DNA of 61,022 nucleotides from an uncultured Candidatus Saccharibacteria bacterium (GTDB lineage: Bacteria; Patescibacteriota; Minisyncoccia; Phycocordibacterales; UBA12079). Both the position numbers and the translations under genes were made by a program. The stretch spans positions 1-61,022 of the forward strand of contig CAZAKQ010000003.1 in assembly GCA_964486155.1 (NCBI GenBank), written 5' to 3'. Positions 1 to 54,771 of this stretch are shown here, piece after piece. The notes beneath the pieces are model-generated. The model did no database searches and was not told the DNA's origin. It saw nothing but the letters and a program-made list of their open reading frames with translations. Numbering within the stretch: position 1 is the first letter of the stretch; each line of letters opens with the position of its first letter.

Positions 1-150
1 ATTGTTTCATTAGATTTTTTGCCAGAAAAGTCTAATATGTATGTGAACTTATTCAATCCTATATTTTTATTAGAGGTGTTTGGTATTTTTACTAAACACC
101 TCTTTAAATTTTGTTTTATTATCAAAATAAGAAAAATTTTTTGAGCTGGA

Positions 151-170
151 CCTGTCTGCCGGCAAGTAGG
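151..170. repeat. G+C-rich hairpin, family 2 (degenerate copy), running into a T-loop-like GGTTCGATTCC
   Basis: The sequence is cctgtctgccggcaagtagg. It resembles the CCTGYCTRCCGAYAGGCAGG copies at 9353, 12938, 36325, 44414 and 49908. Confidence 0.5.
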
Positions 171-413
171 TTCGATTCCAAACCACTAAGTAAAATTTTT
201 TGTTCCTAATCTCAAGAATTTGGCCGGGCTGTTTGGTCACAGGTTTTTAAGTAAAGTTTTCGGAATATGCCGGACTGGATTCGGTTTCCAGTTCTAAGTT
301 CAAACTTCATCAAAACTTTTAAAAAAGTTTTGATTTGTTTTCACTAAGAACTCGCAACCCCGCTCACTCAAATTTTTCTTTTGCTATCGCTTCAGAAAAA
401 TATATTCGTTCGT

Positions 414-437
414 TTCGAATCCAGCCCCTGATACGCA
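414..437 (+). repeat. Inverted partial copy of the tRNA-Tyr T-arm and acceptor 3' half
   Basis: ttcgaatccagccc (414-427) is identical to the sense T-loop/T-stem/acceptor start of the minus-strand tRNA-Tyr. It is separated from the tRNA only by the 435-484 hairpin. Confidence 0.6.
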
Positions 438-481
438 CTAAATATAAAAAACAGAGGAAACCCTCTGTTTTTTATATTTAG

Positions 482-564
482 TGCGCCGGGCTGGATTCGA
501 ACCAGCGTAATCCGAAGATGCGAGTTTTACAGACTCGTGTATTTGACCGCTCTACCACCGACGC
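482..564 (-). tRNA. tRNA-Tyr(GTA), class II (long variable arm)
   Basis: The reverse complement reads GCGTCGG..CTGTAAA anticodon loop..variable-arm hairpin..GCTGG-TTCGAAT-CCAGC-CCGGCGC-A. The acceptor stem is 7 bp. No CCA is encoded. Confidence 0.9.
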
Positions 565-3471: not shown

Positions 3472-3482
3472 GTTATTAGGTA

Positions 3483-3498
3483 TCCGCCAGCTGGCGGA
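3483..3498. repeat. 16-nt G+C palindrome TCCGCCAGCTGGCGGA (family 1)
   Basis: This is a perfect palindrome in the clpB leader, 12 nt upstream of the ATG. Confidence 0.8.
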
Positions 3499-9809: not shown

Positions 9810-9834
9810 CAAGAATTTTCGCCAGAAAATATCT

Positions 9835-9973
9835 CTGGTAGGATTTGCACGGAACTTTTTCGCCGTAGGATTAAGAAAAAGTCTGAGGTTTTGGGGGAAG
9901 TTTGTGAGTATATCGTGAATACTTGGAACGATACGAACAAACTGGAGGAAAAAAATTCCCACCATGGCCTCAA
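9835..9973 (+). ncRNA. tRNA-Cys-linked shadow unit (inverted 3'-half copy ... direct copy of the tRNA 3' end)
   Basis: ctggtaggatttgcacgg (9835-9852) is a degenerate reverse complement of the tRNA-Cys T-arm and acceptor. tcccaccatggcctcaa (9957-9973) exactly repeats 9796-9812. The two ends can pair (TGGTAGGA with TCCCACCA). Confidence 0.4.
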
Positions 9974-10024: not shown

Positions 10025-10106
10025 GTGGAATTGGTATACACGCAGCACTTAAAATGCTGTCTCTTCGGGGATGCGGGTTCGACTCCCGCCCCAGGCACAA
10101 AAAAGA
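10025..10106 (+). tRNA. tRNA-Leu(TAA), class II
   Basis: The sequence reads GCCTGGG..CAGCA-CTTAAAA-TGCTG..long variable arm..GCGGG-TTCGACT-CCCGC-CCCAGGC-A. Confidence 0.9.
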
Positions 10107-10154
10107 AAACATTAATTATTTAAATTAAGGTTTTTCTTTTTGTTTCCTGCAGGA

Positions 10155-10177
10155 CGGGAGTCGAACGGTGATAGAAA
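10155..10177 (+). repeat. Inverted partial copy of the tRNA-Leu T-arm and acceptor
   Basis: cctgcaggacgggagtcgaacgg contains cgggagtcgaac, the reverse complement of the tRNA-Leu T-arm. It is separated from the tRNA by the 10107-10151 hairpin. Confidence 0.55.
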
Positions 10178-12496: not shown

Positions 12497-12563
12497 AACT
12501 TATCTTTATTATAATATTATATATAATATTATAATATTAATTTAGAAGATATTGGTATAAAAT

Positions 12564-12820
12564 AAAAAAAGCGCCCAGAAGACAGAAACCTTTATCTGTT
12601 CCGGGGCGCAATCCGCGAATAGCGGTTTTTTCGACAAATGATTTAAATGGAATTTCCGGTCAGAGGATTTCCCATTCTGACCTAAATCATCTGAAGTAAA
12701 AACCCTCACTGGACCGTCTTATTTTCCTGGTCCTTCTGCAAGTAAGGGTTGTTTTCAAGGGGAAAACTTTCTTTCTGCACTGATTTTTCCCCTAAGACCA
12801 ACCATCATGAGGCTGGATTT
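12564..12820 (-). ncRNA. Orphan structured RNA gene (~255 nt), class unknown
   Basis: On the minus strand there is a TTGACA -35 (12849-12854), a 16-nt spacer and a TAATAT -10 (12827-12832). The body is G+C-richer with several stems (GGGGAAAA/TTTTCCCC, GGTCAGA/TCTGACC, GATGATTTA/TAAATCATT). It ends in the terminator GCGCCC..GGGCGC followed by T7 (12564-12609). Confidence 0.55.
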
Positions 12821-12937
12821 CTATCTATATTACATTATAATAATTATTTGTCAAGCTTTATTGATAATAAATAACAAACAAAAATAAACAGCTCACCTAG
12901 GTGAGTCCTTTATTTCTATAATTTATAATTTTAAATT

Positions 12938-22336: not shown

Positions 22337-22427
22337 GAAGTCCAACCCCAATATTAATAGAACAACATTCAACAACTAAAGTTCACGGTTATTTTAGTTA
22401 ATCCGCCAGCTGGCGGAGTTGGACTTC
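22337..22427 (-). ncRNA. ~90-nt 3'-flank structured element, copy 2 (downstream of rnc)
   Basis: The closing stem is gaagtccaac (22337-22346) with gttggacttc (22418-22427). Relative to copy 1, both strands have changed so that pairing is kept. It has the same core cacggttattttagttaatccgccagctggcggag. Confidence 0.5.
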
Positions 22428-22455
22428 GTTCAATAACTTAAGAAAAATATGAAAA

Positions 22456-22487: not shown

Positions 22488-22491
22488 CTAA

Positions 22492-22507
22492 TCCGCCAGC
22501 TGGCGGA
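22492..22507. repeat. 16-nt G+C palindrome TCCGCCAGCTGGCGGA (family 1)
   Basis: This is a perfect copy, 28 nt beyond the rnc stop. Confidence 0.8.
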
Positions 22508-22535
22508 TTAACTTCCTAAAATCCTAATAATCTAA

Positions 22536-28496: not shown

Positions 28497-28586
28497 GAGG
28501 TCCGACTCCGCCAGCTGGCGGATTAACTAAAATAACCGTAATCTTTAGCTAATTGTTCTATCTTATCAATGCCGAAGTCGTACCTC
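28497..28586 (+). ncRNA. ~90-nt 3'-flank structured element, copy 3 (downstream of dnaE)
   Basis: The closing stem is gaggtccgac (28497-28506) with gtcgtacctc (28577-28586), followed by T7. It has the same core, including tccgccagctggcgga (28507-28522). It is co-oriented with dnaE. Confidence 0.5.
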
Positions 28587-31825: not shown

Positions 31826-31900
31826 GGCCCTATCGTCTAATGGTTAGGACGCAAGCTTCTCAAGCTTGTAATCCGGGTTCGACTCCCGGTAGGGTCACCA
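31826..31900 (+). tRNA. tRNA-Glu(CTC), CCA encoded
   Basis: The sequence reads GGCCCTA..CAAGC-TTCTCAA-GCTTG..CCGGG-TTCGACT-CCCGG-TAGGGTC-A-CCA. Confidence 0.92.
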
Positions 31901-31999: not shown

Positions 32000-32905
32000 A
32001 TGCAAAAATATAATTTTATAAAAAAAGATATTATTGATAATTTATCCCATCAAAAAAATCCACCTTTTAAACTTGTTGAAATATGTCATGATATCAATAC
32101 TAATTATTTAAAAAATAGATATCAAGTAGTGATAGTATTTATCAGAGCTGTATTAGATTACATCCCTCCAATTTTTGGATATAAAACAACTTCTCAAGTA
32201 TATAGTAATTTAAAAAAATATAAATCATTCAAAAAAGCTCTAGAAGGAGTAGATAAATCTACAAGAAATCTTGCTGATGATATATTACACAATCAAGCAA
32301 CTATTAATGAAATAATAAAAGTTGATAAACCCTCTTGTGATTTTGTTAGAGATAATTTAACTCTTATTCTTACCTCTGTTATAAATCAATTAGAAAAAAA
32401 AGATTTACGAACTACTTCTCTAAATCGATTAGAAAAAAAATATGAAAAACCTAAATCTCAAATCCAATTATTTGAAAAATATATAAAAAATATAAGAAAC
32501 TGGAAAAAAGAATTTATAAACAGCAAAGAAGTTTGGATTTATTCAAAAGATAATTTATACCAAATTCATCAACAAGATGATATTAAAGATTTTTCAGAGC
32601 CTTGGACTCAAGTTTGGTTCAATTCAAAAGGTTCTGGTAAATATTATATAGATTTAAAATATAATGGTAGCATCATAAAACAATTTCCAATGATTTATTT
32701 TGATGGGGGAAGAGAAAATATAATTATGCCAAAAATGGAAACTTCTTCAAAAACTAATTTCTGGGAAAATAAAGATATTTATGGAGGTCATTATAAAAAT
32801 GTTGCTTACTATATAATTAAAGATAGTATAGAGTACAACCTATCAAAACTTTTAGGTTCAAATATTGAAAAGATAATTAAAAAGTCTAATATTGAGATAA
32901 GATAA
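32000..32905 (+). CDS. Hypothetical protein (orphan, between tRNA-Glu and the tRNA-Glu-like repeats)
   Basis: The ORF is 301 aa and Lys/Asn-rich. I recognise no family. Confidence 0.5.
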   Translation: MQKYNFIKKDIIDNLSHQKNPPFKLVEICHDINTNYLKNRYQVVIVFIRAVLDYIPPIFGYKTTSQVYSNLKKYKSFKKALEGVDKSTRNLADDILHNQATINEIIKVDKPSCDFVRDNLTLILTSVINQLEKKDLRTTSLNRLEKKYEKPKSQIQLFEKYIKNIRNWKKEFINSKEVWIYSKDNLYQIHQQDDIKDFSEPWTQVWFNSKGSGKYYIDLKYNGSIIKQFPMIYFDGGRENIIMPKMETSSKTNFWENKDIYGGHYKNVAYYIIKDSIEYNLSKLLGSNIEKIIKKSNIEIR

Positions 32906-33156: not shown

Positions 33157-33185
33157 GTTCGAGAGTTGTCCCGATAGGGTTCACA
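33157..33185 (+). repeat. Degenerate tRNA-Glu 3'-end copy (unit U0) followed by a terminator hairpin
   Basis: gttcgagagttgtcccgatagggttcaca compares with the tRNA's gttcgactcccggtagggtcacca. It is followed by aaaaaactcagtcttttgactgggtttttt. Confidence 0.5.
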
Positions 33186-33224
33186 AATTTAAAAAACTCA
33201 GTCTTTTGACTGGGTTTTTTAAAT

Positions 33225-33367
33225 TCTAGTGAATCCCCTGTGTGGGATAGTCGAAAGTCAGAAGAAAATTCGAGATTTTCTGAGACGGGGTCGAGAACAC
33301 TTTGTAAAATTTGAGTTTACGAAAAATTTTACTTAGTGATTCGTGACCGACTCCCGGTAGGGTCACA
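33225..33367 (+). ncRNA. tRNA-Glu-like structured unit U1
   Basis: It ends in cgactcccggtagggtcac, a 19-nt exact match to tRNA-Glu 31880-31898. It contains two AT hairpins set in G+C-rich junction helices. A 21-bp perfect hairpin follows at 33364-33409. Confidence 0.4.
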
Positions 33368-33409
33368 AATCGCCAAAGAGCAAATAGTTTTGCTCTTTGG
33401 CGATTTGTG

Positions 33410-33525
33410 AAGGCGGAGGCCTATTTTTACGACCTATTAGAGAGTAAAAAAGCTGAGCCGAGGTCACGAACACTTAGATATTTTAAGTCCGTAAGGACGA
33501 AAAAAATATTTAGTGATTCGGGACA
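33410..33525 (+). ncRNA. tRNA-Glu-like structured unit U2 (lacks the acceptor-like 3' end)
   Basis: It has the same module order as U1 and U3: ...ggaggc, AT hairpin, ctgagccgaggtcacgaacac, AT hairpin, gtgattcgggac. Confidence 0.35.
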
Positions 33526-33606
33526 CAAGTAAACTCAGTATGCAAAGCACTCAATTAACTCAACTAAAGAATCAAAGCGAATGCTTTGATTTTTTATATT
33601 TTGGTA

Positions 33607-33770
33607 GACCCTACTGGGAGCCGAAAGACGGAGGCTGCGAAGCCATATTTTTCAGAAAGAAAAATATGCAGTCGAGTCCGGGCAGGAGCCACTTGATAAA
33701 ATATAAGTGAACTTGTGAACGAAATATTTTATCTTAGTGAGCTGACGCCGAATCTTCCGGTAGGGTCACA
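33607..33770 (+). ncRNA. tRNA-Glu-like structured unit U3 with a complete acceptor-type closing stem
   Basis: 5' GACCCTAC (33607-33614) pairs perfectly with 3' GTAGGGTC (33760-33767), followed by ACA. The interior holds two AT hairpins and G+C junction helices homologous to U1 and U2. Confidence 0.45.
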
Positions 33771-47765: not shown

Positions 47766-47815
47766 ACAAAGGTTTGAAGAACAAGTGAATAAGATTATAA
47801 TTCTGATTCACTTGT

Positions 47816-48039
47816 TTTTATTATCGACGTAGTGCGAGAGTAATAGAAAAATGTAGCAAAGCGAAATTTTTCTATTGCCGAGCCGAGGAGTTAATATAAG
47901 GAAACCATATAATTCCTACGTTCGGATTATATGAAAATAAATTTTCACAAATCCTCACTTGAAATTATAAGACGAAGTGCTTTTATTATCGACGTAGTGC
48001 GAGAGTAATAGAAAAATGTAGCAAAGCGAAATTTTTCTA
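47816..48039. repeat. Nested repeat block: two 59-bp direct repeats flanking a copy of the 87-bp-family element
   Basis: ttttattatcgacgtagtgcgagagtaatagaaaaatgtagcaaagcgaaatttttcta occurs at 47816-47874 and 47981-48039. Between them, 47906-47968 is related to the 16911 unit (catataatt..cgttcggattatat...aaatcctcacttgaaattat). Confidence 0.85.
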
Positions 48040-48088
48040 CAATGCTTCGTCAGCTTGTTGTGAGGAATTTTTATTTTAGTATTTTAAA

Positions 48089-54087: not shown

Positions 54088-54260
54088 AAAAAAATTAAAT
54101 TAATAATAATTAATATTATTATATAATAATATCACAAAATAACGTATAAAATAGTATTTTTACTGGAAGGATAATCTGATTATTTGGAGATACAGGAAAA
54201 TAAAGAAATTCATTCCATTTCTCAGCACAAATTAAACACCCCAACATGTTGAGGTGTTTA

Positions 54261-54480
54261 ATTTGTGCTGAGGGGCACTCGTCCTGACGATCTCTAAATA
54301 AAATTCTTCGCTATCGCTTAAATTTTATTAAGAGTCGCGGGACACGGCTCACTATCGTTCCGTTTCCTTCGCTTCGCTACGGAATACTCACGATATGCTC
54401 CGCCGTTCGAGCCCGCACGAAAGCCAAACAATTGGCTTTCTCTCTCAACAAAAATTAAAATTCCCGATTTGGGAATTTAA
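54261..54480 (-). ncRNA. tRNA-Phe-linked shadow unit
   Basis: In minus sense it starts just after the tRNA-Phe trailer hairpins. It contains gtgcgggctcgaacggcgg, an inverted T-arm copy whose plus-strand form gttcgagcccgc lies at 54405-54416. It ends in gtgcccctcagcacaaat, which repeats the tRNA 3' end (16-nt identity between 54261-54276 and 54481-54496). Confidence 0.4.
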
Positions 54481-54558: not shown

Positions 54559-54707
54559 ATATTTTATTTTCGATTATACTACCTTATTAATATATATCAA
54601 TATTTTCCGCATTCTGCGAATGCTTTTTCCTATCACCTCGTAAACATCGGTGATTTTCTCACTATCGTTCGAAATCGGATAAAAAACAAAGCAGTTTGTT
54701 TTTTCTT

Positions 54708-54730
54708 CAACTGAGCTACCTCAGCATATT
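54708..54730 (-). repeat. Duplicate of the tRNA-Phe 5' end plus 5 nt of leader (23-nt identity)
   Basis: caactgagctacctcagcatatt at 54708-54730 equals 54541-54563. Confidence 0.85.
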
Positions 54731-54771
54731 TAACTATTCAATTATTATATAATTCTAAAAATATTTTGCAA

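Follow-up and report, generated by a model that had tools for sequence, protein, structure and literature searches.

A Putative Small Mobile Insertion Module Downstream of a tRNA-Tyr Gene in a Patescibacterial Genome

Introduction

Why should an intact tRNA-Tyr gene be followed by a long hairpin, an inverted copy of its own T-arm and further pieces of the same tRNA? The question is raised by the first lines of contig CAZAKQ010000003.1, of which positions 1 to 61,022 were analysed (61,022 nt, hereafter the window). A sequence-only reading of this DNA had noted the same order of tRNA, hairpin and inverted copy at the tRNA-Cys, tRNA-Leu and tRNA-Phe loci, and had taken this as a sign that a mechanism or function common to them, and not random decay, is at work. 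Here, we propose that the tRNA-Tyr flank is a small non-coding mobile insertion module, present as one copy and two remnants, and that it belongs to a family abundant in Patescibacteria. We give this reading, which rests on comparative sequence, a probability of about 0.62.

The module is ~150-250 nt long and non-coding. In the sense of the upstream gene it consists of X, a terminator-type hairpin, the inverted copy antiX and a core, with the direct copy X′ lying directly after the core. X is the last 15-80 nt of the target gene, which at tRNAs means the T-loop to the 3′ end, and antiX is often split by a further hairpin, hp1.

Anatomy of the tRNA-Tyr Locus

The features of the locus, all read on the minus strand, are the following.

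482-564, minus strand: tRNA-Tyr (GTA), intact (Rfam tRNA, 57.5 bits; ARAGORN gives 481-564).
482-501, minus strand: X, the target 3′-end copy inside the functional tRNA-Tyr, from the T-loop onward (part of the ARAGORN/Rfam tRNA call).
434-457/462-485, minus strand: arms of a perfect 24-bp hairpin with a 4-nt loop (repeat search; arms 100% complementary).
414-427, minus strand: antiX, a perfect 14-nt inverted copy of the T-loop and 3′ T-stem, TTCGAATCCAGCCC, pairing with 488-501 (repeat search, BLAST).
284-413, minus strand: class-B core, a three-way junction (cmsearch match of model R1 at 262-404(-), 29.5 bits, E 2e-7).
~367-405, minus strand: P2 hairpin of the core, with the loop GCGATAGC (motif and fold).
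~300-360, minus strand: P3 of the core, with paired CTTAGT motifs and a variable tip (motif and fold).
269-283, minus strand: X′, a direct copy of the T-loop, T-stem and acceptor 3′ strand of tRNA-Tyr, CGAATCCAGtCCGGC, matching 485-499 at 14/15 (repeat search).
214-263, minus strand: putative remnant 2, an older class-B core 3′ end, CTTTACTTAAAAACCTGTGACC, then a shorter Tyr copy, CAGCCCGGCC (plus strand 222-231; alignment A2).
146-205, minus strand: putative remnant 3, a core 3′ end, TTTTACTTAGTGGTTTGG, then a strongly decayed tRNA-Tyr copy, GAATCgaacCtActtGCCGGCaGAC (alignment A2).

The hairpin around the tRNA 3′ end had been given as 23 bp at 435-484 and proved one base pair longer. Its inner part is an intrinsic-terminator-like stem, ACAGAGG/CCTCTGT, flanked by an A-tract and a U-tract, and the hairpin also pairs the last bases of tRNA-Tyr, CGCAC, with the inverted copy GTGCG (434-438). 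Chance is not a sufficient source for it, since the 24-mer arm has a BLAST E of 2.5e-8 and the fold of the read-through pre-tRNA, 405-564(-), at -76 kcal/mol (z -9.7), was equalled by none of 200 shuffles. In this predicted fold a hairpin of 25+13 bp sequesters the T-arm and the acceptor 3′ strand. In a read-through transcript the inverted copy thus outcompetes the cloverleaf in silico, which answers the earlier suggestion to fold the pre-tRNA together with its trailer.

The inverted T-arm copy reported at 414-427 is perfect against 488-501 and, in minus-strand reading, lies directly 5′ of the core. A 6-nt linker, tatcag (428-433), occupies the place that hp1 takes in other modules. We also considered the possibility that the inverted acceptor segment (antiAcc) is a copy of the tRNA 5′ acceptor strand, as in a tRNA-like mimic or a permuted tRNA. 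This was rejected: at the T4.G69 wobble of tRNA-Tyr it carries C, the complement of the 3′ strand. The antiAcc pairing also covers the discriminator base.

An AT hairpin with the loop ttgctatcgctt had been singled out as recurring at tRNA-Phe. It is the P2 hairpin of the class-B core, and the loop GCGATAGC is indeed found again at the Phe locus. The junction of the Tyr core reads GAGCGGGGTTGCGAG, and the class-B junction motif GAGCGGGG begins 116 nt past the tRNA-Tyr 3′ end, within the range of 70-126 nt seen in metagenomes. The unit 262-436(-) folds as P1, P2 and P3 (-59.7 kcal/mol, z -5.8), P1 being antiX paired with X′ over 11 bp in the minimum free energy fold. X′ adjoins the core 3′ end and closes the module through this helix; by analogy with the protein-gene modules described below, we read it as a displaced older tRNA-Tyr 3′ end. 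No open reading frame (ORF) of at least 100 aa lies within the insert (284-481).

The direct Tyr-derived fragments further out had been placed correctly to within one base: the first is X′ itself, and the second is a 9-nt copy, CAGCCCGGC, at 223-231. They are not the independent pseudo-T-arms they had been taken for, as in front of each stands an older module's 3′ end. That the fragments belong to one element follows from the recognition of the module by a covariance model built from unrelated metagenome sequences. The segment 214-263, too short for the covariance model, is probably an older-module 3′ end on the strength of alignment A2, and the segment 146-205 may, with low certainty, be a third. 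For the latter, a plus-strand T-arm-like piece is an alternative, suggested by a 13-nt match of 167-179 to the T-arm of tRNA-Arg (BLAST E 0.085); the match is probably coincidental, because the stretch aligns with a core 3′ end and a decayed Tyr copy. The successive core 3′ ends and Tyr copies at 263-214 and 205-146 also explain the 59-61-nt periodic repeats picked up in the flank by the repeat search. The best reading of the locus appears to be one nearly complete module and two older 3′ remnants, with decay growing away from the tRNA.

An assembly artefact at a palindrome had been named as a possible explanation. Two JGI contigs, L001 from sample 3300007511 and L005 from sample 3300009106, carry the identical stretch. 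With at least three independent assemblies in agreement, the artefact is ruled out.

At the other side of the array, a minus-strand gene that starts at window position 10 (MKQFNISKGVKGWRTLENDVLKFR...) runs off the left end of the window, and no paralogue of it was found in the compared sequences. Contigs L001, L005 and L006 all end at one point, 64 nt left of the window start (L001 13462-13535) and inside the start of this gene, which suggests that the gene beside the Tyr array is repeated or strain-variable.

A Conserved and Structured Core

The sequences between inverted and direct copies fall into a few classes with conserved motifs, and the Tyr, Phe and Glu copies of the window belong to class B. 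This core family is defined here by alignment A1 and by model R1, a covariance model made from metagenome class-B copies only, with no window sequence included. R1 matches five places in the window (three at Glu, one each at Phe and Tyr). The class-B consensus consists of P2 with a G-S-C outer stem, the junction GAGSCGGGGTCGMGAG, P3 with paired ACTTAGT motifs and the 3′ end ACTYGTGACC.

The core has a covarying single-strand structure that is specific to one strand. Aligning 46 diverse cores gave a three-way junction in which a P2 pair switches between GC and CG (22 versus 20) and a P3 pair between UA and CG (30 versus 16). One G.U pair is invariant (46/46), and a second position is G-C in 30 cores and G.U in 15. 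The inner stems of P2 and P3 change almost freely, with many compensatory pairs, and the core contains tandem G.A-type internal loops. Folding favours the tRNA-sense strand over the antisense strand in 26 of 28 units, by a mean of 6 kcal/mol (p 5e-6); the structure therefore belongs to one strand, co-oriented with the upstream gene.

The hairpin hp1 is a perfect 9-bp hairpin with a CTGC loop, exactly 2 nt before antiX, whose stems are wholly different between copies and fully compensatory. Its presence in 18 of 30 modules, including the Phe module of the window, makes it a frequent and not a universal feature.

Searches of Rfam 15 at the gathering threshold matched only tRNAs in the window. 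At E <=5, no plausible match was obtained over the modules in the window and in L037, L048 and L060, only tRNAs and noise.

In two metagenome loci (L098, L135) the class-B core behind an FtsZ-like gene has a class-A-type 3′ motif, GGTGTACAGTTCCTGTAAGGAAAGG, directly before it, which suggests that modules can be nested or hybrid.

Distribution among Patescibacteria

We surveyed 80 Patescibacteria loci around ClpC (1.3 Mb) with 256 ARAGORN tRNAs, using 300-nt flanks in which annotated tRNAs were masked; for the null, each tRNA was paired with the flank of another tRNA. An exact inverted copy of the tRNA's own T-arm, at least 10 nt long, lies downstream of 31/256 tRNAs, typically at +50 to +70, compared with 32/2650 under the null. 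Exact direct copies of at least 10 nt from the last 13-23 nt follow 25 of the 256, typically at +120 to +190. The controls (inverted copies upstream and 5′-half copies downstream) stayed near the null level. The result is a stereotyped unit of ~130-190 nt made of tRNA, hairpin, inverted copy, core and direct copy. With ~10-fold enrichment over the permuted null, 80 other genomes and this stereotyped spacing, the case made earlier for a shared mechanism or function is supported. Absence from other tRNA loci and from relatives, which would have spoken against it, was not seen, as relatives have the layout and so do 4-5 of the window's 9 tRNA loci, with copies at Cys, Leu and Phe as the sequence-only reading had proposed.

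A 24-nt class-B motif occurs in >120 metagenome stretches. For 76 of 121 matches a co-oriented tRNA ends 70-126 nt upstream of the motif (76 within 260 nt), and 28 isoacceptors are represented. By these counts the module family exists with the anatomy given above and is widespread and abundant in Patescibacteria; it is apparently previously undescribed.

Evidence for Movement and Modules Behind Protein Genes

At the orthologous ClpC-tRNA-Tyr site a module is present in ~11 of 44 genomes, with differing core classes. For nearly every core, the closest relative follows another tRNA, whether in the same genome or in a different one. For example, related cores follow tRNA-Tyr and tRNA-Trp in L013, tRNA-Leu-CAA in L044 and tRNA-Cys in L060, and tRNA-Tyr in L043 and tRNA-Lys in L059, and each time the arms match the local tRNA. 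Perfect tandem arrays exist, one of them with 3 x 142 nt in L048. Within the window the scores of the copies fall from 83 to 21 bits, which points to decay.

The layout had been described at tRNA loci. It is not specific to tRNAs, as the module is also found behind protein genes, where the copies are of the protein gene's own 3′ end. Class-B cores stand behind rplL, an FtsZ-like gene and others, in the order of gene end, hairpin, inverted gene-end copy, core and second gene-end copy, with copies 37-68 nt long. Of the 22 differences that separate X from X′ in the FtsZ-like and L136 cases, 19 are at third codon positions (binomial p 4e-7), as are 4/4 in the rplL case. The second copy encodes the same C-terminal peptide, VPAFLRRSKLK, and the FtsZ-like copy keeps its stop codon (read by eye); in L136, 21/22 residues are identical over 68 nt. 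An origin of X and X′ by in-situ duplication and neutral decay was rejected, since it predicts ~46% third-position differences by our own estimate, against 19/22 (~p 1e-4, normal approximation).

The pattern of substitutions indicates that X and X′ both evolved as real gene ends, in different lineages, and are xenologous. In these protein-gene modules antiX matches the in-gene copy and not X′. The synonymous differences and this match together imply that the in-gene 3′ end, the terminator, antiX and the core arrived as one piece from another lineage, and that the resident 3′ end was moved to a place just behind the core. The duplication starts where the stretch pairable by antiX ends. The alignments place one core lineage behind many genes, with arms that match each gene.

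Proposed Mechanism and Implications

We propose that a module carrying X and a terminator would insert immediately 5′ of a resident sequence pairable by antiX. Because the insert brings its own 3′ end, the gene would stay intact and its old 3′ end, X′, would be displaced downstream. Repeated insertion at the same tRNA would push older copies outward to decay, as may have happened at 269-283, 222-231 and ~146-180; the architecture at tRNAs is identical to that at protein genes, and the outward decay gradient at Tyr fits serial insertion beside a functional gene. Set free as a circle or as RNA, the module would be dumbbell-shaped, its X:antiX helix lying between the terminator hairpin at one end and the core at the other. 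The arms could be kept matched in part by template switching within the palindromes.

A bolder version, which we put forward tentatively and hold to be less likely than not, sees the modules as viroid-sized, protein-less mobile elements with a programmable address. Here antiX would pair with a sequence close to a gene's 3′ end and fix the insertion point directly 5′ of that sequence, the core would be the catalytic or recruiting part, and the spare 3′ end with its terminator would render insertion harmless. The core could then be a new ribozyme, an RNA-guided handle (for cleavage and ligation or for reverse transcription) or a folded single-stranded DNA (ssDNA) site, and the free form would be a dumbbell circle of ~150-250 nt.

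If the modules are mobile, Patescibacteria genomes hold many copies of an unrecognised kind of selfish element. These very small genomes would be spending much intergenic DNA on them, the 61-kb window having five loci with modules or remnants, and the family would explain much odd GC-rich intergenic sequence, pseudo-tRNA fragments and assembly breaks. Insertion would be tolerable through the replacement 3′ end and terminator that the module supplies.

Several observations weigh against mobility. The sequences compared showed no insertion event, no free form and no close relative with an empty site. The population contigs carry the same Tyr-locus sequence (L001 and L005 read through it) and the same 964-nt Glu-array interval, with no empty or variant site. 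Pfam and NCBIfam found no integrase, reverse transcriptase or transposase among the neighbouring ORFs tested, where they recognised housekeeping genes only, and motif scans of 2.9 million viral contigs in IMG/VR gave no core, or chance matches in coding sequence. The proposed mechanism does not account for the re-tailoring of the arms to a new target. About two thirds of the metagenome class-B copies have no long exact direct copy of X′ upstream, which means that arms can be short or decayed. The synonymous differences come from three or four protein-gene loci and none from tRNAs, where X and X′ are too conserved to be told apart and so give no such signal. In the Tyr copy itself hp1 is missing and the core 3′ end is degenerate (ACTGGAAAC, consensus ACTCGTGACC). 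Finally, X′ can be perfect beside diverged trailers, for example in L045, which could mean selection on pairing, i.e., function.

Alternative Explanations

This last point belongs to the alternative that survives best, and that we consider improbable, namely a host cis-acting RNA element in the 3′ region or read-through of the upstream transcript. Pairing by antiX would extend the terminator, block read-through, make an RNase III site or control 3′ processing, and the core would be a protein- or ligand-binding switch competing via P1. The strand-specific structure in the direction of the upstream gene, the invariant G.U pair and the tandem G.A-type loops are what such an element would show. 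The antiX and X′ pairings are mutually exclusive, the long hairpin outcompetes the cloverleaf in silico, and the modules are always co-oriented behind genes with intrinsic terminators. A host element does not account for the patchy presence and changing core classes at the orthologous tRNA-Tyr site, the tandem arrays and decayed remnants, or the core lineages common to unrelated genes and genomes. Nor has it any need for a second, intact coding end with a stop codon that has diverged synonymously. Moreover, a canonical terminator separates gene from module, so that most transcripts would exclude the module. Should the host reading be correct instead, the modules would represent a new and widespread class of RNA structure at 3′ ends, one that base-pairs to the T-arm and the acceptor strand of the tRNA.

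Less probable still are ordinary att-site scars. A tyrosine integrase acting at the tRNA T-loop/3′ end would leave the repeats as attL and attR, and the interval would be a deleted remnant or a cis-mobilizable element (CIME) moved in trans. The direct repeats of the tRNA 3′ end do flank the insert and run from the T-loop to the 3′ end, and the T-loop class of tRNA integrase sites reportedly has the same repeat extent. In the window, tRNA-Glu has a 1.4-kb interval with an ORF before the first repeat. In L020, a classical 1.8-kb insertion sits at tRNA-Lys with a 42-nt direct repeat from the anticodon loop to the 3′ end. CIMEs, for their part, are a described category of mobile element (PMC5704250). 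Against scars stands the absence of an integrase or ORF between the repeats at Tyr, Phe and Cys; no recombinase was detected near the Tyr insert by Pfam/NCBIfam in the neighbouring ORFs tested, and no viral contig carries the core. The interval is stereotyped (130-190 nt) with a precise right end, GTGACC and then X′, at >100 loci whose targets are unrelated. The distal copy has no 5′ T-stem-like half-site in front of it. Targets as arbitrary as 28 isoacceptors and the ends of protein genes are not explained by a sequence-specific integrase, covarying single-strand structure is unexpected for a double-stranded attP, and the inverted copy is left unexplained.

The insertion in L020 (2800-4767, minus strand) is an observation in its own right: an ordinary tRNA-targeting integrative element coexists in the clade with the small modules and looks different from them.

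Very improbable, and refuted as a sole explanation because the core is shared, is a local mutational by-product in which terminator hairpins grow by template switching ('quasipalindrome correction') and slippage with no mobile element: it suits the perfect palindromes that include the trailer and the perfect tandem arrays, which are compatible with slippage between direct repeats, and template switching could hold antiX matched to X and may still contribute to arm matching, but a conserved ~100-nt core in >120 loci of many genomes and X′ copies that differ from X at synonymous sites are unexplained by it.

Other Copies and Repeats in the Window

The window has a G+C content of ~28%, nine tRNA genes (ARAGORN, Rfam) and housekeeping genes that include a ClpB/C-type ATPase, IF-2, RbfA, ArgRS, DnaE, LepA and MurJ. 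Its ClpC is at most 65-67% identical to that of any species representative, and its best matches are all Patescibacteria, mostly Paceibacteria/Parcubacteria metagenome-assembled genomes. The host of the Tyr-locus module is here taken to be a Paceibacteria-like genome. The sister copies in the window are listed below.

54260-54424, minus strand: class-B module of tRNA-Phe (cmsearch, 34.8 bits, E 5e-9).
33237-33770, plus strand: three tandem class-B modules with tRNA-Glu 3′-end copies (cmsearch, 83, 59.3 and 21.4 bits).
33237-33369, plus strand: Glu module 1 (83 bits).
33392-33546, plus strand: Glu module 2 (59.3 bits).
33607-33770, plus strand: Glu module 3 (21.4 bits).
9811-9973, plus strand: module of tRNA-Cys (repeat/BLAST comparison; R1 gives no match).
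10099-10175, plus strand: partial module of tRNA-Leu(TAA) (terminator hairpin and 12-nt inverted T-arm copy, 10155-10166).

In the Phe module, the inverted T-arm copy is 12 nt long (54405-54416), and the direct copy, which covers the tRNA 3′ end and trailer, matches at 17/17 (54260-54276); the hp1 hairpin GAAAGCCAA/TTGGCTTTC lies 2 nt 5′ of antiX. The Cys module has an inverted T-arm copy at ~9838-9851 (12/14) and a P2-like hairpin, ATATCGTGAATACTTGGAACGATA, without the P3 part; the module closes with a direct copy of the tRNA 3′ end that matches at 17/17 (9957-9973). The partial Leu(TAA) module has no core and no direct copy, and tRNA-Lys follows directly.

The Glu-derived array (33160-33770), absent from the earlier account, is part of a ~700-nt non-coding stretch past tRNA-Glu with several direct and inverted 3′-end copies, the direct ones including 33348-33366 (19/19) and 33757-69 (13/13). 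It lies 1.3 kb downstream of tRNA-Glu (31826-31900), past a 301-aa ORF (32000-32905) for which no Pfam or NCBIfam family was found and which an insertion at tRNA-Glu may have brought in as cargo. The array is also where several contigs from other samples begin or stop.

Upstream of tRNA-Phe (54565-54731) a perfect 24-nt direct repeat was observed (54541-64 and 54708-31), made up of the first 18 nt of tRNA-Phe and 6 nt of upstream flank. Between the two copies lie 143 nt in which an hp1-type hairpin (ACTGC loop) is accompanied by the motif CTCACTATCGTTCG, common to the downstream module. In other genomes, similar duplications of the tRNA 5′ end, up to the D-loop, lie upstream of 15 of the 256 tRNAs. 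Such duplications could be what is left of an older copy of tRNA plus module, or a second insertion type.

An unrelated family of intergenic repeats, CTAAAGATTACGGTTATTTTAGTTAATCCGCCAGCTGGCGGAGTCGGAC, has 49-54-nt copies with 94-100% identity around a 16-nt palindrome, TCCGCCAGCTGGCGGA, and looks like a REP/MITE-type element (repetitive extragenic palindrome/miniature inverted-repeat transposable element). The repeat search placed its copies as follows.

740-788: copy of CTAAAGATTACGGTTATTTTAGTTAATCCGCCAGCTGGCGGAGTCGGAC between tRNA-Tyr and clpC, adjoining the Tyr locus.
28500-28548: copy of CTAAAGATTACGGTTATTTTAGTTAATCCGCCAGCTGGCGGAGTCGGAC, inverted.
22375-22428: copy of CTAAAGATTACGGTTATTTTAGTTAATCCGCCAGCTGGCGGAGTCGGAC.
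22489-22513: copy of CTAAAGATTACGGTTATTTTAGTTAATCCGCCAGCTGGCGGAGTCGGAC.
3482-3498: copy of CTAAAGATTACGGTTATTTTAGTTAATCCGCCAGCTGGCGGAGTCGGAC.

At 47800-48050, two ~70-nt copies of TTATTATCGACGTAGTGCGAGAGTAATAGAAAAATGTAGCAAAGCGAAATTTTTCTA, ~170 nt apart, form an intergenic local repeat. Between the genes for a PIF1-like helicase and ArgRS, a GC-richer non-coding segment of ~270 nt (12560-12830) with several hairpins and no Rfam match is possibly an unrecognised structured RNA.

Comparison with Known Systems

A literature search on tRNA repeats, non-coding RNA, palindromes, miniature att elements and CIMEs in Patescibacteria (the candidate phyla radiation, CPR) found nothing describing such modules. 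TIGR-Tas arrays were considered and are a different kind of array. Among known RNA structures, the hammerhead, twister, pistol and hatchet ribozymes, H/ACA or box C/D guides, retron msr/msd and group II domain V were compared with the core; none fits by its consensus features, and there is no Rfam support for any of them.

Integrative elements that replace the 3′ end of their target (phages, integrative and conjugative elements, CIMEs) resemble the module in that the insert supplies a new 3′ end while the old one is displaced as a direct repeat, and in their tandem accretion by repeated insertion at the same tRNA. Unlike them, the module is 150-250 nt long and without an integrase; it has a structured-core terminus, an inverted target copy and a structure on one strand.

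REP/REPIN and MITE-type repeats (BIME, Correia, RPE) are, like the module, short, non-coding, hairpin-forming and numerous, are found after gene 3′ ends, are often terminator-like, and have intact and decayed copies side by side. Their bodies and terminal inverted repeats are constant between sites, whereas the arms of the module differ at each locus and equal the 3′ end of the neighbouring gene. Neither a constant body with constant terminal inverted repeats nor a short identical target-site duplication, the marks of MITE and REP elements, was found in the modules.

Integron attC and the attP(+) of CTX phage, which mimics dif, are strand-specific folded single-strand recombination sites. By analogy, the module shares with them the primacy of structure over sequence, inverted target-like copies that would form a double-strand mimic, and a newest array unit at the site of entry. 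No recombinase of the IntI or Xer type, and no core-site motif as in those systems, was found with the modules, and their arms copy whichever gene lies upstream, unlike the fixed site of attC and CTX attP.

The mobile RNAs that bear a guide, i.e., group I and II introns (internal guide and exon-binding sequences), the omega-RNA of IS200/605 and the bridge RNA of IS110, have, like the module, a scaffold beside a segment complementary (antiX) or identical (X′) to the target, and their insertion point lies at the end of the guide-target pairing, as it does here. Group IIC introns insert after terminators, a position similar to that of the module. The module differs in having no Rfam match to an intron, ribozyme or omega-RNA and no adjacent protein gene, and in the duplication of the target 3′ end, which to our knowledge is not made by introns, omega-RNA elements or bridge-RNA elements.

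The nearest known systems thus share one or two features with the modules and fail in the defining ones, for which reason we rate the modules as a new kind of element, with mobility and mechanism inferred from comparison of sequences. An antisense copy of the target beside a structured core is a guide-plus-scaffold architecture, here with no protein gene adjacent, and it makes one question testable: does a small RNA or ssDNA element choose its integration site by base pairing?

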